NCBI GenBank assembly: GCA_964508365.1
Contig: CAZDTP010000079.1
Location: 1 to 13,854 of the forward strand
Length of the DNA: 13,854 bases
Source of the DNA: an uncultured archaeon
GTDB taxonomy: Archaea; Asgardarchaeota; Lokiarchaeia; Sigyniarchaeales; SOKP01
Direction of reading: 5' to 3'
The first letter of the stretch is position 1. Each line of letters opens with the position of its first letter. A model generated the notes under the pieces. The model had not been told where the DNA came from. It made no database searches and worked only from the letters and a program-made list of their open reading frames with translations. Of this stretch, positions 516-12,848 are shown piece after piece. The position numbers were made by a program, and so were the translations under genes.

Positions 516-1478
516 ATGACTATACAATTAACTAGCATGATTTTGCACGGCATTCTTAACGCCGTTCTCTACATCGCTCTACCTTTGGTTCTCTTCGAAG
601 TTATCGCTATGACGGGTCTTATGACTTTTAGTCAAGCGTTTAAAATGACTATAATAATAATAGGGATTATAGGCGTTGTTTTTTCAATGTTAAGGCATGC
701 ATTTCCTAAGGACACATCAGCAAATCGCCTTATGGCATTTAGCTCAACTATTTATTCTGGATTCTATCTGTTTTATCTTTTCGGTGGATTTACGCCAGGA
801 GTTCAATTAGGAACTTATTTAATAAGTTTGCCTTCTCTTCAGGTACTACTGGGTTTACAAATAATTGCTTGGTTACTGTTAGGGTCTTCAGGATTAAGAG
901 CGTTAAAGTATTTAATCGAAGCAATTGAATTACGGAAGAATAAGGAATATCGCGTAAAAAAGCAATTTAAGCTTAGTAATTTTTTTAAAGTGTTAGGTAC
1001 GATACTCAGTCTAATAATATTTGGGTATCTTGGTAGCATCGCTTACAGTGGGTTGAATCTTGATTTTAATATCCATCCTACTTTTGATTTAAATCACGAT
1101 CCAGGCGCTGATCTTCTAAGTTTAAGCGATGACACGGTTAATTTAACTGTTACTTTTGATCTTGATAACCAGGGTCTTTATGCAATTTATGATGTTTATA
1201 TCGATGCAGTATTCAATACAGTTAATAGTACAAATCCTTCAGCACTTCCAGAAGGTGTGAAAATTGGTGAATCTTTAAACAACTACTTTAGTACTTTCCA
1301 CTCTTTTACAAATAATCTTGATAATAACATAACTATTGTTATGGATCCAACATATATTCCGGGTTTACTGACGACAGATGCGTCTCTGGCTCTTAAAATC
1401 TCGTTTACCACCCTCTACGCCGCAATTCTTATTAGTCTAGATCTAACAGTTAATGTCCCATGGATCCACTTAATCTAA
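516..1478 (+). CDS. Hypothetical multi-pass membrane protein with C-terminal beta-rich soluble domain
   Basis: 320-aa ORF with about 4-5 hydrophobic stretches in residues 1-178 and a basic loop (RKNKEYRVKKQFK). The C-terminal domain carries N-x-T sequons at N209, N237 and N271. No family recognised with certainty. Confidence 0.8.
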   Translation: MTIQLTSMILHGILNAVLYIALPLVLFEVIAMTGLMTFSQAFKMTIIIIGIIGVVFSMLRHAFPKDTSANRLMAFSSTIYSGFYLFYLFGGFTPGVQLGTYLISLPSLQVLLGLQIIAWLLLGSSGLRALKYLIEAIELRKNKEYRVKKQFKLSNFFKVLGTILSLIIFGYLGSIAYSGLNLDFNIHPTFDLNHDPGADLLSLSDDTVNLTVTFDLDNQGLYAIYDVYIDAVFNTVNSTNPSALPEGVKIGESLNNYFSTFHSFTNNLDNNITIVMDPTYIPGLLTTDASLALKISFTTLYAAILISLDLTVNVPWIHLI

Positions 1479-1506: not shown

Positions 1507-1570
1507 AAAATCGTATAGACTCATTAAAGCATATTATTTTTTGAGGTATTAATATTTTTTAGCCAATCAG

Positions 1571-1578
1571 TTTAAATT
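1571..1578 (+). promoter_or_regulatory. TATA-box candidate for a leaderless or short-leader prx transcript
   Basis: TTTAAATT lies 30-23 nt upstream of ATG 1601, and there is no SD motif directly before the ATG. Spacing fits archaeal promoters, but the region is very AT-rich. Confidence 0.35.
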
Positions 1579-1600
1579 TTAAATATTTTTATTGAATTAT

Positions 1601-2113
1601 ATGAACAACGAAGAACCGCCAAGACCTAATGGATTACTGGAGAATTCTATAGCACCTATGTTTGATACAAAAGACATCTACGGAAAAGAAATGAATTTGG
1701 AAACCTTGCTTGAAGAGTACAACGGAGTAATGATTGATTTTTTTAGGGGAAATTGGTGAAGTCACTGTAAAAAGCATTTATTTCTACTGACGGAAAATAT
1801 TACAGAATTTGAGAGCAGAAATATCAAGTTAATATCAATCGCAAGCGATAGCGAAAGGCTTCTAAAGAAATTTAAAGAAGAAAATAATTTCACTGTTGAT
1901 ATGATCTCTGATCGTGGAGCAAAAATCGCAAAAAATTACGATGTTTACTGGTTTGCTCCCGGCGGAGGAGGAACTTTGAACATTAAACAAGCGATACCAA
2001 GTAAATTTCTGATAAATAAGGATAGAAAGATAGTATGGACTTACATTGGTAAAGATAAGACAGACAGGCCTTCAATAAAAATGATGACTACTATAATTGA
2101 TGAAAATTTATAA
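1601..2113 (+). CDS. Peroxiredoxin-like (AhpC/TSA, thioredoxin fold) selenoprotein, 170 aa, Sec53 encoded by TGA 1757-1759
   Basis: Hand translation from ATG 1601 gives MNNEEPPRPNGLLENSIAPMFDTKDIYGKEMNLETLLEEYNGVMIDFFRGNW*SHCKKHLFLLTENITEFESRNIKLISIASDSERLLKKFKEENNFTVD, which continues in frame into track ORF 1901..2113. The single TGA sits where the redox Cys of the AhpC/TSA FxRGxWCxxC motif is expected. AhpC-type similarity is present on both sides: APMFDTKDIYGKEMNL before and AIPSKFLINKDRKIVW after. A SECIS-like hairpin follows the stop. Confidence 0.92.
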
Positions 2114-2116
2114 ATC

Positions 2117-2174
2117 CCTTTATGGATGACTTATGTATAAAAATAGTTGATACATGGGGACAACCTTGCTAAGG
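2117..2174 (+). promoter_or_regulatory. Eukaryote-like SECIS element in the 3' UTR (core 2126-2161)
   Basis: AUGA (2126-2129) is followed by CUUAUGUAU (2130-2138), loop AAAAUAGUUG (2139-2148), AUACAUGGGG (2149-2158) and GA-C (2159-2161). AUGUAU/AUACAU is perfectly complementary, extended by U-G, U-G and C-G pairs with one bulged G. Tandem G.A/A.G pairs are possible. A weaker lower stem can form: GG 2124-25/CC 2164-65 and CCUU 2117-20/AAGG 2171-74. Confidence 0.78.
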
Positions 2175-2196
2175 TTGGGGTATTTTATTTTTTTTT
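2161..2196. terminator. Perfect 7-bp hairpin plus T-tract between convergent genes
   Basis: CAACCTT-GCT-AAGGTTG (2161-2177), then GGG and TATTTTATTTTTTTTT. It lies between the stops at 2113 (+) and 2215 (-). Confidence 0.45.
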
Positions 2197-2214
2197 AAAA
2201 AAGATAAGAAGTTA

Positions 2215-3027
2215 CTAATAGGTATAAAATCCTTTCTTCGTTTTTTGTCCAAGATTACCTTTATCAACTAGATCTTTTAAAGCTTGAGGAGGTTTATCAT
2301 CTTCTAAGCCACTATTTTTATAATAGGACATTTCAATATCATAAATCACATCCAACCCGATCTGATCCATAAATTGGAAGGGACCTATTCCCATGCCTGT
2401 GAATATTCTCCACGCTTTATCGACTTCTTCTAAATCAGCGTATCCTCCTGCCCATATTTTCATACTTTCTTTTTTGATAGCCCGCCATACTCTATTAAAC
2501 ACAAATCCATAGCATTCTTTTTTAACTATTAGAGGTGTTATATCAATACTCTCAACCCATTTTTTACCTTTTTCAAAGGTCTCATCACTAGTTTTGGTTC
2601 CTCTCATAATATCTGCCATTGGCATAGTAATAACGTTATAAAAATGGATATTTAACAATTTGTCTTTTCGAGCTACTTCATCCTCTAATTTTGAGACCGG
2701 TATTGAGGAACTATTCGTCGCAATAATGGCATTAGGTTGAGCTGCTTCATCAATTACCTTAAATATTTCTCTTTTTAATTCTAATATTTCTGGAACTGCT
2801 TCGATAATTAAGTCTGCGTCTTTTACAGCGTCTTTAATGGTTTCATGTGAAGTTATTTCTCCTGGTGTTTTTTTTCTTCTCTTTAATTTTCTGGAGAATT
2901 TTGCTAAATCTTCTACATTTGTATCATAGAGACGTATAGTATATTCTTTTAATGCTGTTCTCTCAGCTATTTGTTTACCTAAATAGCCAGCACCTATTAT
3001 AGAAACAATTTTTATTTCTTCACTCAT
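2215..3027 (-). CDS. 3-hydroxyacyl-CoA dehydrogenase family protein (NAD-binding + dimerisation domains)
   Basis: Rossmann motif GAGYLG, plus DLIIEAVPE, TNSSS, HFYN, GFVFNR, GPFQFMDQIGLD and GQKTKKGFY. Confidence 0.92.
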   Translation of the reverse strand: MSEEIKIVSIIGAGYLGKQIAERTALKEYTIRLYDTNVEDLAKFSRKLKRRKKTPGEITSHETIKDAVKDADLIIEAVPEILELKREIFKVIDEAAQPNAIIATNSSSIPVSKLEDEVARKDKLLNIHFYNVITMPMADIMRGTKTSDETFEKGKKWVESIDITPLIVKKECYGFVFNRVWRAIKKESMKIWAGGYADLEEVDKAWRIFTGMGIGPFQFMDQIGLDVIYDIEMSYYKNSGLEDDKPPQALKDLVDKGNLGQKTKKGFYTY

Positions 3028-3120
3028 CGATAATCATTATTTAAATTGGTTTTGATAATTTTATTTTGAACGAGATCATATAATAATTTAATTAAACTAA
3101 AATTGAACTTGTGATTTAGA

Positions 3121-4068
3121 TTGATAGAAATAGAAGATTTGAATAGTGTCTTAATAATTGGAGCAGGTACTATGGGGCATTCAATAGCCCAAGTATACGC
3201 TCAAGCTGGTTTTGAAGTAGATCTCGTGGACACACATCAAAAGAAACTAGACCATGCTTTAGATTTGATCAAGTCAAATCTTGCGGTATTAGCTGAATTC
3301 GATAGAGTGCAAAATAACGAAATTCCCTCAATAATCGAAAGAATACACCCAAAAACTGACCTAAAGGAAGCTGCAAATGAAAAGATGTTTGTACTAGAAG
3401 CTGTAAACGAAAATCCCGATTTAAAGAAGCACCTATTTATTCAACTGTCTGAATTATGCCATGAGAATACAATACTAGCAAGTAATACCTCAACTCTAGA
3501 CATCTTTACAATTACTAGAGGTATTAAAAATGTTCACCGTATAATTGCTCATCATTGGTTCGCTCCACCACATATAATCCCACTAGTCGAAGTTGTACCG
3601 AGTAAAAAAACATCAAATGATATAGTAGAATTTTCTGTTAGCATACTAAAAAGAATTGGGAAAGAACCGATTGTAATTGATAAGTTCCTTCCTGGGTATA
3701 TAGTGAACCGTATTCAAACTGCCTTATATGGAGCTATGTATGAATTACTAGCTAGGAATATAGCTACACCAGAACAGATTGATCTTGCTATCAGGACAAC
3801 TTTAGGAATTAGATTACCTATTGTGGGTATCGCACAATCTCAAGACTTTACGGGACTTGATTTAGTGTGCGATATTCAGAAATCGAAGGGTGGTGTATTA
3901 CCATTAATCCAAGAGAAAGTAGATAACAATCAACTTGGGGTAAAAACTGGAAAAGGATTGTTCGATTATCACGGAATAAGTGAGGAAGATATATTGAAAA
4001 AACGAGATCGATTATTTTTACGCCAACTTGAATTTCTTGAAAATTTGACCTCTTTTAAGCGTATCTAA
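3121..4068 (+). CDS. 3-hydroxyacyl-CoA dehydrogenase family protein (second, divergent paralog; TTG start)
   Basis: Motifs GAGTMGHSIA, EAVNE, SNTSTL, HHWFAPPHIIPLVEV, PGYIVNRIQ, DFTGLD and GVKTGKGLFDY. Confidence 0.92.
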   Translation: MIEIEDLNSVLIIGAGTMGHSIAQVYAQAGFEVDLVDTHQKKLDHALDLIKSNLAVLAEFDRVQNNEIPSIIERIHPKTDLKEAANEKMFVLEAVNENPDLKKHLFIQLSELCHENTILASNTSTLDIFTITRGIKNVHRIIAHHWFAPPHIIPLVEVVPSKKTSNDIVEFSVSILKRIGKEPIVIDKFLPGYIVNRIQTALYGAMYELLARNIATPEQIDLAIRTTLGIRLPIVGIAQSQDFTGLDLVCDIQKSKGGVLPLIQEKVDNNQLGVKTGKGLFDYHGISEEDILKKRDRLFLRQLEFLENLTSFKRI

Positions 4069-4277
4069 TATTATGTTTTAGCAGTATGTAGTATTAATAA
4101 ATCACCGAAAAATTTTGATAAACAAAGATCTACATTTATGTCAAATTATACTAATTGCTCCATAAGTATATATTCAAGTTTATATCCATAGATAATAATC
4201 AATAAGATACAAAAATTTATCTTGAAAATTTAATTTACAAATCAAAAAAAATTGATTCCACAAGAGATTAGATTAAA

Positions 4278-5570
4278 ATGGTACAAAAAAAAACAGCTTG
4301 GTATGAAACACCTGTAATTAAAGATATGATGGGATTAATGGGTGGCAGAGCGTTAAGAGGTGTAATGGCCTCTTATTTATCGTCTAAAATTTTTGTAGGA
4401 AAAGCGGCGCTACTACGAGTTGTGCGATACTTAGAAGCTACGATTGATAAACGAGATAGGCGAGCGTTAATTATAACAGATTCGTTTACTCAAAAATTTG
4501 CCAAAAAGCTAACAGATTATCTTGATTTAATTGAAATGGAATACAAGGTATGGTCTGGTGCAGAACCAGAGGTGCCAATCACGACGATCTATGAGGGTGT
4601 TAAAATATGCGAGGAATTTAAACCGCAAGTACTGTTTGCATTAGGGGGTGGTAGTGTTATGGATACGACAAAAATGGTGATGGTTAAATATGAAAAACCG
4701 GAAGAAAATCTTTTAATGATTTTACCATATTTCGGTTCTTTAGGATTGCGAAAGAAGATGAAATATTTTATTGCGATACCAACGACATCTGGAACTGGTT
4801 CCGAAGTAACTCCAGTTGCCGTAATTACTGATAATGAAAGAGATCCTCCTAAAAAAATTGAAGTGTTAGGTGACGAGTTATGTGCAGACATTACGATTCT
4901 ATTTACGGATTTTGTTAAAGATATGCCTCCGTTTCTGACAATGGCAACAGGTTTGGACGCACTATCTCACGCTATGGGAAGTTTCGTGTCAAATTGGGGT
5001 AGCCCATTTACTGATGCCATGAATTCGACCGCGATTAAAGAAGTAGTAAAATACCTTCCTCGTGCGTATAAATACGGTGCAAAAGATATAGAAGCTAGAG
5101 ATCACATGCAGATGGCTGCACTAATGGCGGGAATAGGATTTGGAAATACAATAGCTGGAATAGACCATTCATTAGGGCATAGCTTTGGGAAGATTTTTGG
5201 TGTACATCACGGGCTTAGCGTTGGGATGTTCTTGCCTTATTCTATTGACTTTCAAGCAAAAGTTACTGATAGATGGAAATTATTATGCCCAATTTTCAAT
5301 GTTAAAGTCGAAAACAAGGGAAGAGACGAAATCTATAAAGAATTTCTTCAAGCCGTCAAAAATTTTATACTCTCAATTGATGGTCCTATATGCGTAAAAG
5401 ATTTGAAAAATCCTGTTATTAGTAAAGAAGATTATTTCTCTAAACTAGATTTATTAGCCGAATATGCCGACGACGACGCAGTATCTCTAACTTCTTTTCG
5501 TACAATTAATAGGAAGCTATATAGAACCATTTTTGAGTATGCATGGGATGGAAAAGATATTGATTTTTAA
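4278..5570 (+). CDS. Iron-containing alcohol dehydrogenase, probably NAD-dependent
   Basis: GGGSVMD and PTTSGTGSE motifs. Metal ligands lie in DALSH, HSLGH and HHG. The Asp in IITDS is at the position linked to NAD preference in this family. It has an N-terminal extension of about 30 aa. Confidence 0.93.
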   Translation: MVQKKTAWYETPVIKDMMGLMGGRALRGVMASYLSSKIFVGKAALLRVVRYLEATIDKRDRRALIITDSFTQKFAKKLTDYLDLIEMEYKVWSGAEPEVPITTIYEGVKICEEFKPQVLFALGGGSVMDTTKMVMVKYEKPEENLLMILPYFGSLGLRKKMKYFIAIPTTSGTGSEVTPVAVITDNERDPPKKIEVLGDELCADITILFTDFVKDMPPFLTMATGLDALSHAMGSFVSNWGSPFTDAMNSTAIKEVVKYLPRAYKYGAKDIEARDHMQMAALMAGIGFGNTIAGIDHSLGHSFGKIFGVHHGLSVGMFLPYSIDFQAKVTDRWKLLCPIFNVKVENKGRDEIYKEFLQAVKNFILSIDGPICVKDLKNPVISKEDYFSKLDLLAEYADDDAVSLTSFRTINRKLYRTIFEYAWDGKDIDF

Positions 5571-5573
5571 TAT

Positions 5574-5578
5574 GGAGG
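5574..5578 (+). promoter_or_regulatory. Shine-Dalgarno site of aor
   Basis: GGAGG 7 nt before ATG 5586, inside a 15-nt gap after the adh stop. Confidence 0.7.
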
Positions 5579-5585
5579 GAAAAAG

Positions 5586-7460
5586 ATGAGTGAAAATTTA
5601 TTTGGTTATAATAGAAAAATTGCTTATGTAAATTTAACCGATCAAACGGTCGATGTTAAAGATTTGGACGCTCAAGTTGCAAAGGAATACCTCGGTGGTA
5701 CAGGGTTAAGCGCTAAAATAACTTACGACCTTCTATCAAAAGACGATTACGACACCTTAAAAAAAGATGCTTTTTCAGAAATTAATCCACTAATATTTGC
5801 AACGGGACCTGTAACAGGAACTTTAAGGCCCTCCTCCGGAAGGTACACCGTAACAGCAATATCACCCCTTACAGGGATATGGGGTGAAGGCTCTTCTGGG
5901 GGTTATTTTTGCATTTCTTTACATAACAGTGGTTTCGATGCTATAGTTATTGTTGGGAAAGCAAAAAGTCCGATCTATCTATATATTCACGATGAAACCA
6001 TTGAGTTTAAAAGTGGAGATGCCGTTTGGGGTAAAGACACATACGAAACCCAATTAATTTTGAAAAAAGTACTAAACAACGAAATGATTCGGGTTGCCAC
6101 TATTGGTATTGCTGGTGAAAATTTAGTGAAATACGCGGGAATAATTAACGATGAAGGTCGAGCTATAGGGAGATGTGGTTTAGGCGCTATAATGGGCTCA
6201 AAAAACTTAAAAGCAATTGCAATTCACGGAACCAAAAGAGTGCAAATCGCAGATAATAAAATAGGTAAAGAATTGTTAAAAGAAGCAGAAGATGCAAAGA
6301 AAGGAGACCTCCTTAAATCTATAACGCCTTTTCTATTCACTTTATACGGTACAAATTGCTATTTAGACATAGGTATGGCTCTAGGTGACACGCCAGCACA
6401 TTATTTTACTAAGAACGAATTTTTCGCTGAAAAATTGACGGGGAAAACGTTACGGGAAGAATATCCCGTTTTAGATTACGGATGTGCGGGCTGTACTATG
6501 AGATGTGGTAAAACTACAATTGTAGAACACGAAGGCAAAGATATCGAAGTAGATGGACCAGAGTACGAGTCTGTCGCGGCATTTGGACCTTTATGTGGCG
6601 TTACCGATTCCAAAGAAGTAATTCTCTCGCATCATATGTGTAATGTATATGGTTTTGATACTATTTCTGGGGGCGTGTCAATCGCATTTTTAATTTACTT
6701 AGTTGAAAATAATTTGGGAATTGATAAAATTAAGTCACATCTAAAAGATATTGAAATCGGAGAAATAAAGTGGGGAAATGGAAATTTACTTTTAAAATTA
6801 ATTGATAAAATTGCGAAAAAAGAAGGCATTGGCAACGTACTTTCTGAGGGTGTACGCACCATGGCAAAAGAATTTAATGTTGATCCTGAATTAGCTGCCC
6901 ATGTAAAGGGTTTAGAAATGCCCATGCACGATCCAAGAGCTTTTGCGGGACAAGCTTTAAGTTATATTACTTGTTATGTGGGAGCCAGTCACGAAAAATG
7001 TGATTGGTTCAGCGCTGAAGCAGGAACCCTCGCGTACCCGCAAATACGCGTAAAATCTGGCGATAGAACTTCCATAAAAGGTAGAGAAAAAGGAGTTATT
7101 GCCCTACAAAACATTAGGGCGATAGATGATTCCGCCGTAAATTGCAATTTCCTAAACCCCACACTTGAACACATAATTAAACACATCAACGCAGCAACGG
7201 GTTTTGATTACAGTAAAAAATCTTTATTACTTGTAGGGGAACGAATAAATACTCTTAAAAGACTTATTATATGCAATCTAGGGATAACAAGAGAAGACGA
7301 TAAACTACCTGGTCATCTCAATAAAGTATTGAAGTCTGGTAAAACAGAAGGGGTAAAGTTAGAATTAAATGAAAGCTTAAAGACATATTACAAGATTCGT
7401 GATTGGAATTGGGAAACTGGTTGTCCAACAAAAGAAAAACTCGAAGAACTTAATATATAA
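5586..7460 (+). CDS. aor: Tungsten-type aldehyde:ferredoxin oxidoreductase family protein
   Basis: 624 aa with SPLTG, GRCGLGAIMGSKNLKAI, [4Fe-4S] CAGCTMRC, GPEYES, HVKGLEMPMHDPR, DDSAVNC and YYKIRDW. Confidence 0.95.
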   Translation: MSENLFGYNRKIAYVNLTDQTVDVKDLDAQVAKEYLGGTGLSAKITYDLLSKDDYDTLKKDAFSEINPLIFATGPVTGTLRPSSGRYTVTAISPLTGIWGEGSSGGYFCISLHNSGFDAIVIVGKAKSPIYLYIHDETIEFKSGDAVWGKDTYETQLILKKVLNNEMIRVATIGIAGENLVKYAGIINDEGRAIGRCGLGAIMGSKNLKAIAIHGTKRVQIADNKIGKELLKEAEDAKKGDLLKSITPFLFTLYGTNCYLDIGMALGDTPAHYFTKNEFFAEKLTGKTLREEYPVLDYGCAGCTMRCGKTTIVEHEGKDIEVDGPEYESVAAFGPLCGVTDSKEVILSHHMCNVYGFDTISGGVSIAFLIYLVENNLGIDKIKSHLKDIEIGEIKWGNGNLLLKLIDKIAKKEGIGNVLSEGVRTMAKEFNVDPELAAHVKGLEMPMHDPRAFAGQALSYITCYVGASHEKCDWFSAEAGTLAYPQIRVKSGDRTSIKGREKGVIALQNIRAIDDSAVNCNFLNPTLEHIIKHINAATGFDYSKKSLLLVGERINTLKRLIICNLGITREDDKLPGHLNKVLKSGKTEGVKLELNESLKTYYKIRDWNWETGCPTKEKLEELNI

Positions 7461-7531: not shown

Positions 7532-8515
7532 TCAATCTCTCTTTTGATAGGTGATTTTTTCTAAAGCTCCTAAAAAATAATCGTTTTCTTTTCTAGTTCC
7601 TATTGTAACCCGAAAATATTCTGAACCAAGTTGTTTTGATACGTCGAGTACCAATACTCCTTGCTCGGTAAGCTTTTTTGAAATGTTAGGAATTGTTGTT
7701 TTCATTAATAAAAAATTCGAATAACTTTTAAAAACTGAAATATCTAATTTTGAAGCAACACTCCTAATTCGATTTTTTTCTTTTTCAACATCGTTAATAT
7801 ATTCTATTGCATAGTTTTTATTTTTCAAGGCACTTATGCCAGCTACTACGTTTGGATAAGGTAGCATTGTATTAATTCCGAGAAACCTCTTTTGGACAGT
7901 CTCTCCTCCAATTATATATCCCACTCCTAACCCGGACAATCCAAACCCCTTGCTTAATGTTCTCAAAATAGCTAGATTAGGATAATCTGCGATTAAATTA
8001 GCATATGTTACATTTGAAAATTCAAAATAAGCTTCGTCTACCAAAAAAATGATGTTTTCATTTTCTAATATCAATTTTACTTCGTTTTTATCTAAAATTA
8101 TATTTCCAGTTGGGTTGTTAGGGTTATCTAAAATTATTAACGTTGGTTTTTTTAACTCATCAATTAACGGTACAATTGAAAGTTTAAATTCAGGTTCTTT
8201 TAATCTTACCTTTAAAATTGAAGAATAGGTCTTTCGACAGGTCGCATTAATTAAAAAAAAAGACGGATCAGCGAGAATAATTTGCCTATTTTTCGAAAAA
8301 AGATAAATAAATTCTTTTAGCAAGATATCAGATGCGGAACTAATAATAATTGAATTTTTAGGAGAATTCGTATATTTACTTAATAAAGATAATAATTCGT
8401 CTACTTTACGTTGAGGAGTATATCGATTTAAGAATTCTATGCTTTCTTTGATAGGATCGGTAATCTCTCTTGGAAGCTTTATAGGCATTTCGTTTCTATC
8501 TAATCTAATTAACAT
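7532..8515 (-). CDS. PLP-dependent class I/II aminotransferase, HisC/CobD-like
   Basis: Motifs RLDRNE, DNPNNPTG, VDEAYFEF, LRTLSKGFGL (PLP lysine), SNFLL and FRVTIG. ATG 8515 is preferred; the track start TTG 8536 adds 7 aa. Substrate is uncertain. Confidence 0.85.
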   Translation of the reverse strand: MLIRLDRNEMPIKLPREITDPIKESIEFLNRYTPQRKVDELLSLLSKYTNSPKNSIIISSASDILLKEFIYLFSKNRQIILADPSFFLINATCRKTYSSILKVRLKEPEFKLSIVPLIDELKKPTLIILDNPNNPTGNIILDKNEVKLILENENIIFLVDEAYFEFSNVTYANLIADYPNLAILRTLSKGFGLSGLGVGYIIGGETVQKRFLGINTMLPYPNVVAGISALKNKNYAIEYINDVEKEKNRIRSVASKLDISVFKSYSNFLLMKTTIPNISKKLTEQGVLVLDVSKQLGSEYFRVTIGTRKENDYFLGALEKITYQKRD

Positions 8516-8598
8516 GCTTCGTACCCTAATTGGCAAGAATCGCTCTTTTTATTCGATTATTATTTTTCAATATATTAACTATGTTAGAAATTAAATGC

Positions 8599-9723
8599 TT
8601 AACATTCAATTTCTATTATTAGCTCCTCCTTGTATCCGATTATCACTTTTGCAAGTCCTTTAAGCATTTCATCGGTCTTAATATCGCCAGTATCTACCAT
8701 TAAACATCTTAAACCTTTAATTTTTTCTTCAGTTGAAACTATTTTAATATTCTTTTTTCCAATTTTTTTTAGAACTTTAGGAGTAAATTGCTTATTACCT
8801 CTTCCAAAAATAAAACCTTGTCCACCTATTGGTGAGACGATAATTTTTGCCTTTTTATGTTTATTCAAAAGTTCTAGGATTCCACGTTCATTTAAATCTA
8901 TCCCAATAATCTTACCGTTATAAAGAGCATCTACTCCAAGTAAGCTTTTTTTTAACTTTAACTGATCAGTGATTGCTTTTACAGTTGTACCAGGCCCAAG
9001 GAAATATAATATTTCATCTACTAAATTTTCAATTACATGTTGAGCAACTTCATGTTTATTTTCTTCAATGGATCTTCCTATTTTAGAACTATCTTTTCCA
9101 GCTTGTAGAAGATTCATAACTTTAGGAACATTTAAGTATCCATATAGTCTTGAATCTAAAATTCCTTCTCGAAACGATTTTTCATTAATATCTAAAACCT
9201 CATTTTCTTGAATTTCTACTGTTTCCTTTATGAATTTGTCAACAATTTCGGCAGCAGCTCTAGGGTTAATGGCAAAAACAGAGCTGAACATTTTAACGCC
9301 AGAAGGTATTGCCACAACAGGTATAGATAAGCCAATGGCATCGTGAATATCTCTGGCTGTCCCGTCTCCGCCACAAAAAATCAATAATTCAATATTTTGT
9401 TGTTTCATCATTATAGCTATTTTTTTTGTATCTTCGGCAGTAGTTTCTTGATTAATATCACCTATTATTTCGAAATCTATGCCCGTTTCTTTCACAATAT
9501 TAGCACCCATATTTCCTGGAGCAACTAATAAGTGAATTTTACCTTTGGTTTTTATATTAGAAAGAAAAGAGCGAATTCTGTCAGGAGTTATTGGCTTAGC
9601 TCCCATTTTAATAGCTTTCTTAAATATATCACCATCAGTTCCTTTAAGTCCTACGCTCCCACCCATGCCTGCAATGGGGTTAATTATTAGACCAATACTT
9701 CTTCTTTTATTATCTATTTCCAA
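8599..9723 (-). CDS. ATP-NAD kinase family protein (COG3199-type); TTG start
   Basis: GLIINPIAGMGGSVGLKGTDG, the GGDGT kinase motif, GVKMFS, GPGTT and GGQGFIFGRGNKQ. Confidence 0.9.
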   Translation of the reverse strand: MEIDNKRRSIGLIINPIAGMGGSVGLKGTDGDIFKKAIKMGAKPITPDRIRSFLSNIKTKGKIHLLVAPGNMGANIVKETGIDFEIIGDINQETTAEDTKKIAIMMKQQNIELLIFCGGDGTARDIHDAIGLSIPVVAIPSGVKMFSSVFAINPRAAAEIVDKFIKETVEIQENEVLDINEKSFREGILDSRLYGYLNVPKVMNLLQAGKDSSKIGRSIEENKHEVAQHVIENLVDEILYFLGPGTTVKAITDQLKLKKSLLGVDALYNGKIIGIDLNERGILELLNKHKKAKIIVSPIGGQGFIFGRGNKQFTPKVLKKIGKKNIKIVSTEEKIKGLRCLMVDTGDIKTDEMLKGLAKVIIGYKEELIIEIEC

Positions 9724-10318: not shown

Positions 10319-10588
10319 ATGGACATAATTGTGTCTAAAGACGAGATAATTGAGTATAAAAAGCTTAAAGTTATTAGTGAAATCACTTTAACAAAGGAAA
10401 AAGTTTCTCTTTTCGAAAGGAAATACGGATGCTCTATAGATGAATTTAGAAAAAGAATGGAGAATTCGAAAGAGAGTTTTGAAGAATGGGATGATTACAT
10501 CGAATGGAAGGCAAATTTTGAATTATTAAAGGATTTGGAAAACAATTTAACTGAACTGGACAATGCAAAAGACATTAAAATTGTTTAA
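10319..10588 (+). CDS. Putative antitoxin partner of DUF6516 (TumA-like), 89 aa
   Basis: GTGAGGT SD at 10305-10311. The FERKYGCSIDEF...WDDYIEW pattern is typical of small acidic proteins found upstream of DUF6516. Its stop overlaps the next start. Confidence 0.75.
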   Translation: MDIIVSKDEIIEYKKLKVISEITLTKEKVSLFERKYGCSIDEFRKRMENSKESFEEWDDYIEWKANFELLKDLENNLTELDNAKDIKIV

Positions 10589-10904
10589 CAAGAGCGGAAT
10601 AATTAAAAAACATACCATTCTTGAAATTAAATATAGTACATCAGCACAATATTTAAAAGCTAGAGTAGAACTTAAGAATGGAGACATATTACATGTAAAG
10701 GAGTACATTTCTTCAACTGAACATTTATATTCATATCATTGGCAAAAAGAAAATGGGGATTTGATAATCAGATGGGACAATTCTCCACATCATAGACATT
10801 TACTAACATTTCCACACCATAAACATAGTCCAGATTTAGAGGAATCCTATGAAACGACTTTTAAAGATGTAATTAAAGTTATCAGTAAAATTTTAAAAAA
10901 ATAA
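10581..10904 (+). CDS. DUF6516 family protein (TumE-like putative toxin)
   Basis: Motifs YSYHWQ, IRWDNSPHH and TFPHHKH. TTG 10581 overlaps the upstream TAA; the alternative start is ATG 10563, as in the track. Confidence 0.85.
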   Translation: MFNKSGIIKKHTILEIKYSTSAQYLKARVELKNGDILHVKEYISSTEHLYSYHWQKENGDLIIRWDNSPHHRHLLTFPHHKHSPDLEESYETTFKDVIKVISKILKK

Positions 10905-10967
10905 GAAGAAAAAAAAATAAAGTTTTACTAAACCTTTTTGTTCATCTTCTTTCGAGCTTTCTTAAGG

Positions 10968-11132
10968 TCACCATCGGAGAAAATGATTTAAAAATGCTTC
11001 CACTCTTTTAGGAAAGACTGGCTTGGCTCCTAATTTAATAGCATCTTTAATAATCTCACTATCTGTTCCTTTTAGCCCTACGCTACCGCCCATCCCTGCG
11101 ATTGGATTTACTATGAGTCCAATTTTCTTCAT
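10968..11132 (-). pseudogene. Truncated ATP-NAD kinase-family paralog (N-terminal 54 aa only)
   Basis: Hand translation gives MKKIGLIVNPIAGMGGSVGLKGTDSEIIKDAIKLGAKPVFPKRVEAFLNHFLRW*. It has 33/45 identities to the N-terminus of 8599..9723. No further similarity was seen in any frame past about 10980. Confidence 0.88.
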
Positions 11133-11333
11133 ATTGATATTTTACCTTTGTAAGAGGTCGAGATAGTTTCACTTATGATTTGAATTTAAAAGTATATTTT
11201 CTTTTACAAACAATATAATTTAGGATTACTTACTTTTATAATTTTAAATTAAAAAATGAAAGGAGAAGAAAATACGCGCAATAATAAAACCTTCGGCTAT
11301 TTGTTAAAAGCTTCGAAATTAATTAACTGTGAG

Positions 11334-11537
11334 TTAATTATCCAATTTATCATAGCAATTTTGGCAGAAAAAGATTTTCCGCCCTTTTGAAACGTCCTTA
11401 ACCATATAACCTTTCTTATGCGCAGTCTCGCAACCCCAACACAGCTTAGTAATATGAGTTTCAACGATGTGATATTCTTTTTTATCAAATTTATCTTCTT
11501 TTATGAGTTCCTTATAACTTACCATTATTTCGCTCAA
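11334..11537 (-). CDS. Small putative zinc-finger protein (67 aa)
   Basis: CWGC...CQNC pairs 21 residues apart. TTG start (or internal ATG). A T-rich tract follows on the minus strand. Confidence 0.65.
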   Translation of the reverse strand: MSEIMVSYKELIKEDKFDKKEYHIVETHITKLCWGCETAHKKGYMVKDVSKGRKIFFCQNCYDKLDN

Positions 11538-11873
11538 CTTTAGTTTTTATAATTCCGAATGATTTTTCGAATAATCATTCAATATATTTTATTATTTGAA
11601 TTGAATCATATGAGATATTTAAGGATTATGAATGCGTATTCAAATAGCAGTAAGAAGGTCTAGAACTATTTTATGAATCTTTTACGTAAATTATATTAAT
11701 AAAAAAGAAAATCTAATCAGTTAAAGGTTTAGAAATTAAATAAATTCAAAAAAAAACAAAAAAAAAAATCGAGTATTTGATTATTCTACTTGCTATGAAT
11801 TTTCATCGGGATTTTTTTTTGAAGGATTTCAACCCTCTTTTATTCTCTCTCAATTTCTAAAATCTTAATTATG

Positions 11874-12848
11874 TTAACTTGAATTAGTAATAAAATTAAT
11901 TGCTTCATTAGCACTGAAAGCAATAAGTTCTTTACATTCTTTACAAGTAGCTCCATATTGCTGAAATTCTTTCCAGTTGTCAAATTTAGTATTAGAAATT
12001 ATTGAGCATTCTAAACTACCCGCTTTATCTAAAAATTTCTCTATTATCCTTCTTCCAGCGGTAAAAACATTCTTATCATCAACTGGATTATTCTTTCTCA
12101 ATTCCTTTGCTGATTTTAATAGACTCCTAATATTTTTAAGCATCCCATAATCCATATAATTTTGCCCTGAATCAACACTAATTGCCATAATCGCTGCAGA
12201 TATCGCTCCACAAGCTCCCCCTTGTAACCCTATACCGCCGTCAAGCGCTACTGAGATCCTTTCTAGAAAAGGGCTTCCTACCGATGTTTTATTTCTCACT
12301 TCTTCAAGAACAGTACGAGCGCAATGGAAACTATTTGATATACCATTATACTGCATGGGATCAATTTCAGGAAGCGAATCTTTGATAGAACAGAGATATT
12401 CCGCAGCACCTCCTGTATGAGACAAACATTTTCTTAAATTTCGAGGGCGGAAAAGACCCATTACACTTTTCCATAGATTTAATCCCGTTCTTTCTCGACA
12501 CAAGGTTGTTCCATATTTTTCATCAAACCAGCTAATGTAATCTTTTATAAGAGCGTGAAGTCGCAATTCATCTTCTATTTCCCAATTTGAGATTTTCGAA
12601 TCAAGAACCGTGGCTAAACTCATTGCACCGCTAAAAATTACTCCACAAGACGAACCCTTTAAAAGAAGCCCGCCCGAACATCCTCCTAACGCTTTTAATA
12701 TATCATCATCCTTCATATCGTAGGCATCTTGAAAAACTCTAATCTGAGTTAAAGCACAACCCATTGTCTTAAGGAGCGTTCTTTTAGCTCTTTTACCTGG
12801 TTCTATGATTTTAATCTCTTTCTTTTGATTAATTGTAATTTTTATCAA
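11874..12848 (-). CDS. Tandem two-domain C-GCAxxG-C-C family putative redox/metal-binding protein
   Basis: Domain 1 has C31, SSCGVIFSGA (C68), KYGTTLCRE (C117) and C141. Domain 2 has C176, GGIGLQGGACGAISAA (C213), KAGSLECS (C281) and TCKEC (C302/C305). TTG start, with an in-frame TAG two codons upstream. Confidence 0.85.
   Translation of the reverse strand: MIKITINQKKEIKIIEPGKRAKRTLLKTMGCALTQIRVFQDAYDMKDDDILKALGGCSGGLLLKGSSCGVIFSGAMSLATVLDSKISNWEIEDELRLHALIKDYISWFDEKYGTTLCRERTGLNLWKSVMGLFRPRNLRKCLSHTGGAAEYLCSIKDSLPEIDPMQYNGISNSFHCARTVLEEVRNKTSVGSPFLERISVALDGGIGLQGGACGAISAAIMAISVDSGQNYMDYGMLKNIRSLLKSAKELRKNNPVDDKNVFTAGRRIIEKFLDKAGSLECSIISNTKFDNWKEFQQYGATCKECKELIAFSANEAINFITNSS

Follow-up and report, generated by a model that had tools for sequence, protein, structure and literature searches.

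SelL, a peroxiredoxin-like (Prx-like) selenoprotein of aquatic eukaryotes, carries a UxxU diselenide motif. In archaea, five selenoprotein families were reported for Lokiarchaeota in 2016, with PrxL among them (Mariotti et al., PMC4989117); in that account the Prx-like subclass is defined by a thioredoxin-type redox box set in a Prx-like fold, a UxxU box marks the PrxL.1 type, and no member is given as biochemically characterized. A later survey by Huang et al. 2024 recorded PrxL in 43.2% of the Asgard archaea that use Sec, in most cases with type I eSECIS-like elements (PMC11227280). The insertion signal of the PrxL, VhuU, and HdrA-VhuD genes, the lokiSECIS, is described in section 11 of the 2016 paper as an AUGA, a 9-bp stem, an 11-nt loop, and a GA—the first five bases of the loop favour A and the last is an ultraconserved G (PMC4989117). 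The same source describes a Loki tRNA-Sec with an intron in the T loop and an EFsec gene on the same contig at a distance of about 6 kb, and gives no known SBP2 for Lokiarchaeota (PMC4989117).

Here we describe a locus in a 13,854-nt stretch of DNA (the window) from a Loki-type Asgard archaeon. It is a real gene that gene callers split, and it encodes a Sec-containing, thioredoxin-fold, Prx-like redox protein in which the internal TGA is almost certainly read as selenocysteine (Sec), judging by the evolutionary and genomic evidence below. The full reading—one cytoplasmic PrxL protein of 170 residues, with UGA codon 53 as a SECIS-directed Sec and an oxidoreductase role favoured—is one that we hold with high confidence. 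The features of the locus are collected in Table 1.

Table 1. Features of the PrxL locus, with positions in the window.
Feature	Position	Strand	Basis
TATA-like A/T-rich box, candidate archaeal promoter	1571..1586	+	sequence only; ~15-30 nt upstream of ATG
PrxL (Prx-like) selenoprotein gene	1601..2113	+	Pfam, orthologues, dN/dS, AF2 model
UGA, predicted Sec codon 53, position one of UxxC	1757..1759	+	TGA in 16/16 full-length orthologues and all paralogues
TGT, Cys56, position two of the redox box, predicted resolving partner	1766..1768	+	aligns with Prx peroxidatic Cys
CCA, Pro133, invariant, thioredoxin-fold cis-Pro position	1997..1999	+	family alignment; ResA 'PT.FLID' Pro
Helix I, 5' strand (lower stem; CCC core 2116-2118)	2112..2118	+	constrained folds, 21 homologous 3' UTRs
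AUGA, 5' half of kink-turn-type core	2126..2129	+	invariant in 21/21 aligned elements
Helix II, 9 bp (2130-2138 with 2150-2158)	2130..2158	+	covariation, RNAalifold
Apical loop, 11 nt, AAAAAUAGUUG (AAAAA...G)	2139-2149	+	sequence
GA, 3' half of core, then invariant C	2159..2160	+	GAC invariant in 21/21
Side hairpin, CAACCUU-GCU-AAGGUUG	2161..2177	+	~15/21 constrained folds
Helix I, 3' strand	2178..2185	+	constrained folds
T9 run, likely archaeal transcription terminator	2188..2196	+	sequence; T-run in same place in orthologues

The interrupted frame and its conservation

From the ATG to the TAA at 2111-2113, the frame comprises 170 sense codons and a stop (171 in total). Its sole in-frame stop is the TGA at codon 53; the codons around it read TTT TTT AGG GGA AAT TGG TGA AGT CAC TGT (FFRGNW-U-SHC), just as an initial annotation of this DNA had claimed; that annotation was also right that the ORF track keeps no more of the frame than its C-terminal 70 aa, since the table-11 ORF list splits it into 1592-1759 (55 aa) and 1901-2113 (70 aa) only. 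When the frame is read through, the protein matches the Pfam families AhpC-TSA (5.6e-23, residues 17-146) and Redoxin (1.4e-16), and both matches cross the TGA. Cys and Sec are restricted to U53 and C56, both of which lie in the redox box, and inspection of the translation found no hydrophobic segment, signal, or anchor sequence at the N-terminus (MNNEEPPRPNGL...). The A/T-rich box ahead of the gene is a possible promoter, and from it the transcript would have little or no leader; the T run behind the gene is the likely transcription terminator.

A six-frame search of 40 genomes (39 relatives and the source genome) found the gene in 19 of the 24 genomes of the same genus, with TGA at the Sec position in every match that covers the site. 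The initial annotation had expected homologues to align across the TGA with either Cys or TGA at codon 53; what is found is TGA throughout, a recurrence beyond chance: each of the 16 full-length orthologues of the genus carries it, as do all the more distant paralogues that were recovered, and a search among close relatives for true Cys orthologues found none. The 16 full-length orthologues share a start Met and are 68-92% identical over their full length, and their synonymous sites are saturated (median dS > 1). The dN/dS ratio before the TGA (codons 2-52) is 0.13, and after it (codons 54-170) 0.07, so both halves are translated as protein; codons 54-100, which lie outside any table-11 ORF, hold many invariant residues. 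In the more distant paralogues and in one orthologue codon 56 is TGA as well, giving UxxU.

Close homologues in the databases are of two kinds: C-terminal fragments named redoxin or peroxiredoxin, from Lokiarchaeota/Promethearchaeota, and full-length proteins, some extending beyond the true stop, with W at column 53 and in some cases also at 56 (P0002-P0041). The fragments bear out the earlier expectation that pipelines mis-call the gene. We read the W at the Sec column as UGA translated as Trp, and the W and WxxW homologues as what results when a TGA=Trp code is applied to short contigs, which would mask selenoproteins as false 'W' proteins.

The gene immediately upstream, at 516-1478 (+), encodes a predicted membrane protein of 320 aa that matches no Pfam family and is kept beside PrxL in 16 same-genus genomes (48-95% identity); the convergent neighbour, a 3-hydroxyacyl-CoA dehydrogenase, is also kept across the genus. 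Conservation of neighbours within one genus says little on function. A fermentation/redox cluster occupies 2215-7460, with 3-hydroxyacyl-CoA dehydrogenases at 2215-3027 (-) and 3121-4068 (+), an Fe-alcohol dehydrogenase at 4278-5570, and an aldehyde:ferredoxin oxidoreductase at 5586-7460. Further along the window, an 89-codon ORF at 10319-10588 overlaps the start of a TumE-family toxin gene at 10563-10904 (+) (Pfam 7.8e-23), and 10319-10904 (+) is probably a TumE/TumA-type toxin-antitoxin pair. Two C_GCAxxG_C_C 'putative redox-active protein' stretches occur in the 324-aa product of the gene at 11874-12848 (-); the ~970 nt before that gene (10905-11873) contain no ORF of more than 100 codons, even with TGA read-through.

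Insertion signal, Sec machinery, and the reading of UGA

The Loki-type, eukaryote-like SECIS hairpin begins 13 nt past the stop codon, at a distance of 367 nt from the UGA. An Rfam scan of the whole window (E up to 10) gave no SECIS and no other credible RNA, and MFE folding of the single 3'-UTR sequence does yield helix II, but at an energy that is not unusual (z = -1.07); the structure was therefore tested comparatively, and it rests on covariation. Across 21 homologous 3' UTRs from related genomes, all nine pairs of helix II show double (compensatory) changes, and 93% of the helix II cells are paired, a share that falls to 26-59% once the 3' partners are shifted along—the 21 sequences had been chosen to have 7 or more of the 9 pairs behind an AUGA, which inflates the percentage paired, not the double changes. 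RNAalifold independently recovers helix II from a wider alignment.

Helix I is present in most of the 21 folds although its sequences differ (CCCAUGA/UCAUGGG, UUUCUAAAA/UUUUAGAAA), and the side hairpin shows some covariation of its own (AACC/GGUU, AGCC/GGCU, ACCC/GGGU). On the extended 3'-UTR alignment RNAalifold yields helix II only, because the register of helix I and of the side hairpin varies between sequences; for these two parts constrained single-sequence folds were used, which are weaker evidence. Taken together, these folds place helix I (2112-2118/2178-2185), helix II, and the side hairpin (2161-2177) in the layout of a three-way junction. Support is partial, and we consider it rather unlikely that the SECIS of this lineage is such a junction and not a simple two-helix element. 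If Sec insertion did need the side hairpin, for example for the docking of an archaeal SECIS-binding factor, it would be a feature absent from the descriptions of the element in the relevant parts of the 2016 and 2024 papers (PMC4989117, PMC11227280).

The element at 2126-2160 shows every feature that the 2016 description gives for a type I lokiSECIS, and differs in the penultimate base of the loop, which is U here and 'most often A' in that paper (PMC4989117). A scan of the 4.07-Mb assembly for the lokiSECIS pattern returned five matches, three of which lie directly behind genes with an in-frame UGA, the PrxL element included. The second such match (contig 8: 45839-45873 (-)) lies just behind a VhuU-like gene with a ...DCU... 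Ni-site motif, and the third (contig 72: 3703-3737 (+)) follows, at a distance of 11 nt, a long HdrA/VhuD-like frame that is itself interrupted by an in-frame TGA. Both have AA instead of GA after the stem, which the two papers report for some such genes (PMC4989117, PMC11227280). The remaining two matches have no UGA frame upstream and look like chance.

The machinery that the initial annotation had proposed to search for—tRNA-Sec, SelD, a PSTK-like kinase, SepSecS, and EFsec—is all present in the source assembly, the completeness of which is estimated at 100%. SepSecS exceeds the TIGR03531 cut-off with 477 bits and scores 380 bits with the Pfam SepSecS model. SelD is also above its cut-off and has one in-frame TGA of its own (Sec-containing). 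The PSTK-like kinase (KTI12 family in Pfam; 154 bits) and the EFsec/archaeal SelB, an EF-Tu-type GTPase with the Pfam domain aSelB_III (237 bits), fall below the cut-offs of the NCBIfam PSTK and SelB models, which were built on other lineages.

The tRNA-Sec gene was found genome-wide neither by aragorn, with and without intron mode, nor by Rfam RF01852, and cmscan of the 20 kb around EFsec found no tRNA-Sec either; a pattern scanner for the 9/4-fold returned AT-rich false matches only, and failed because the gene is interrupted. The gene was located by blastn with tRNA-Sec sequences of the same genus, at contig 19: 8044-8194 (+). Two inserts explain why the tRNA finders missed it: one of 28 nt that begins one base past the anticodon (8085-8112), and one of 30 nt in the T loop (8147-8176). 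Once both are removed in silico, aragorn calls tRNA-SeC(tca), with discriminator G, a long variable arm, and an acceptor stem that is 9 bp by manual pairing (GGCCCCCGG with CTGGGGGCC) and that aragorn draws as 8/9. On contig 19 the order is EFsec at 1565-3007 (-), tRNA-Sec, and SepSecS at 8219-9595; the SepSecS ORF thus follows the tRNA gene after 24 nt, and EFsec is ~5 kb away from that gene. A normal 89-nt tRNA-Sec was found in 23 of the 40 genomes. Genome-wide, aragorn calls just 29 tRNAs in the source assembly, so other tRNAs are probably interrupted too.

How the codon is read can be weighed against this background. If the TGA were a genuine stop, the locus would be a pseudogene or split gene that yields a 52-residue peptide, the 70-residue C-terminal ORF, or both—the default reading under table 11, and one in keeping with the many public C-terminal fragments annotated as partial redoxins. 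It is at odds with a TGA that all 16 orthologues retain despite saturated dS, with purifying selection on both sides of the codon (codons 54-100 included), with a conserved, covarying SECIS after the gene, and with a full Sec machinery in the genome; we regard this reading as effectively refuted, and its probability as very small. A sequencing or assembly error that turned TGC or TGT (Cys) into TGA has in its favour that these codons are one base apart and nothing further, whereas the TGA recurs at this codon in independent assemblies of at least 16 related genomes, and the W at the Sec column in database homologues called with a TGA=W-type code speaks for the same codon; the chance of such an error is close to nil. 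That UGA has come to encode Trp, Gly, or Cys in place of Sec, genome-wide or by context, could be argued from the full-length gene-caller homologues with W at the site; however, TGA ends 223 of the 1700 long ORFs in the source genome (13%), where it is not reassigned, the in-frame TGAs coincide with redox-Cys positions, each with a SECIS behind it, and the genome encodes a tRNA-Sec(UCA) and SepSecS, which leaves this reading highly improbable. The evolutionary tests of the TGA site dispose of the pseudogene, sequencing-error, and reassignment rivals; under selenium shortage, some near-cognate insertion of Trp or Cys at the UGA may occur. Sec insertion at codon 53 is thus the reading we keep, and the core of the initial annotation, a UxxC selenoprotein of AhpC/TSA-redoxin fold hidden from annotation in a Lokiarchaeon, is upheld by the SECIS, the kept TGA, the selection on both halves, and the machinery.

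Fold, active site, and predicted chemistry

The AF2 model of PrxL has a pLDDT of 92, and its nearest solved folds are the BCP/PrxQ/AhpE peroxiredoxins (Bcp4, TM 0.84), then ResA (0.68-0.69). The active site was mapped with HMMER against Sulfolobus PrxQ and with BLASTP against the genome's own canonical BCP (FYPKDNTPGC ... TRSTFLIN). In these alignments Sec53 pairs with the Thr of the Prx PxxxTxxC motif, Cys56 with the peroxidatic Cys, and Arg49 stands where the Pro would be—the motif of peroxiredoxins proper, PxxxT/SxxC, is therefore reduced in PrxL to its Cys (C56). The initial annotation had placed the Sec at the redox Cys of AhpC/TSA proteins; this assignment has to be given up, since that position is taken by C56. 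The catalytic Arg of peroxiredoxins has no counterpart in PrxL: it falls opposite Q130 in the HMMER alignment and in a gap beside P133 in the BLASTP alignment.

In the ResA alignment (4nmu), Sec53 pairs with the first, nucleophilic Cys of the WCxxC box, and Pro133 with the Pro before the FLID strand, in the same stretch where canonical BCP has its catalytic Arg. Pro133 is a putative cis-Pro, so named for its alignment position. The KQAxPSK stretch is invariant in the alignment of the PrxL family. The best NCBIfam matches, to the SelL-related redox protein and to ResA, do not reach the cut-offs of these models (for the ResA model NF002854, 49 bits against a cut-off of 170).

With PrxL as the query, the only other match in the genome is a canonical Cys BCP/PrxQ (contig 4: 7811-8158 (-) = L065:1432-1989 (-)), which has both the PxxxTxxC motif and the catalytic Arg. 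With this enzyme in the same genome, PrxL is not the sole candidate for a peroxide reductase.

Sec reacts readily with peroxides, a reactivity established for GPx-type enzymes, and the title of the initial annotation implied a true peroxiredoxin that depends on Sec to reduce hydroperoxides. This possibility draws further support from AhpC-TSA as the top Pfam family, and from a fold that is closest to Bcp4, PrxQ, and AhpE, with a higher TM score to Bcp4 (0.84) than to ResA (0.68). On the other side, the PxxxT/SxxC motif is absent (R49 for Pro, U53 for Thr), no Arg aligns, all three features are found in a canonical Cys BCP/PrxQ of the same genome, and the best NCBIfam matches are the SelL-related redox protein and ResA. 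We therefore see hydroperoxide reduction as a tentative second reading, with a chance of roughly one in three. The missing Prx Pro, Thr, and Arg, together with a UxxC box and a Pro at the cis-Pro position, favour a thiol:disulfide oxidoreductase, and a selenylsulfide enzyme of this kind, perhaps a dedicated disulfide reductase, is the somewhat likelier candidate for PrxL. Of the earlier wording 'Sec peroxidase/oxidoreductase', the second term stands and the classical peroxidase does not, as the Sec is off the peroxidatic position and the Prx Pro and Arg are missing; with the Sec not at the position of the peroxidatic Cys, 'oxidoreductase' is the safer name.

For the favoured thiol:disulfide oxidoreductase, a working scheme can be drawn from the established archaeal and eukaryotic Sec pathway and from the modelled active site. 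EFsec carrying Sec-tRNA-Sec would be guided by the 3'-UTR SECIS to the in-frame UGA. In the folded protein, Sec53, at the N-terminus of the helix 54-65, would act as the nucleophile and attack a substrate disulfide, or possibly a peroxide. Cys56 would then resolve the intermediate to give an intramolecular selenylsulfide, which a thioredoxin-type reductant would re-reduce.

Comparison with known systems

The initial annotation had left open whether this subfamily was described; it is, as PrxL (PMC4989117; PMC11227280). Both the family and the eukaryote-like signal for Sec insertion have been in the literature since 2016, so the present result is an annotation correction and not a discovery. 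Its practical value lies in that correction: pipelines cut the gene at the UGA or, on short contigs, render the UGA as Trp, and public databases therefore hold 'redoxin, partial' fragments. Correct calling matters for counts of the Asgard selenoproteome, and for the transition of the Sec machinery from archaea to eukaryotes, in which the eukaryote-like SECIS is the main argument.

The more distant relatives differ from PrxL in clear respects. BCP/PrxQ proteins (3hjp Bcp4, 2ywn, 4gqf) have the closest fold (TM 0.84) and give the best PDB sequence match (4.2e-11); in contrast to them, PrxL lacks PxxxT/SxxC and the catalytic Arg, and has Sec at the site of the Prx Thr. ResA/TlpA proteins (1st9, 4nmu) share the WCxxC-type box, the Pro before the FLI(D/N) strand, and a TM score of 0.68-0.69, but they are membrane-anchored, extracytoplasmic Cys proteins, whereas PrxL has Sec and no anchor. 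SelL and the model NF040769 (SelL-related redox protein), the best NCBIfam match, share with PrxL the Prx-like fold and a thioredoxin-type redox box with Sec; the match to NF040769 reaches 50.6 bits against a cut-off of 120, in two stretches of which the best covers residues 19-113, and the box is UxxC here and UxxU in SelL. As for the RNA, the element shares with the eukaryotic type I SECIS its place in the 3' UTR, the AUGA...GA core, and the unpaired adenines that open the apical loop; it differs in a small extra hairpin on the 3' side of the internal loop and, by the comparison made in the 2016 paper, in a shorter helix II, of 9 bp (PMC4989117).

Closest of all are the PrxL proteins themselves. 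The gene is, by its sequence features, an already known PrxL.2-type selenoprotein of Mariotti et al. 2016 (PMC4989117): it has the AhpC-TSA/Redoxin fold with a C/U-x-x-C/U box in place of T/S-x-x-C, and it shares with PrxL.2, as the two papers describe it, the fold family and a single Sec that opens the UxxC box (PMC4989117, PMC11227280). As in the 2016 description of PrxL, there is no Cys outside the redox box (PMC4989117). A type I lokiSECIS just after the stop and UxxU paralogues in relatives complete the likeness—nothing of substance differs, and what the locus adds to PrxL.2 is another orthologue from another genome.
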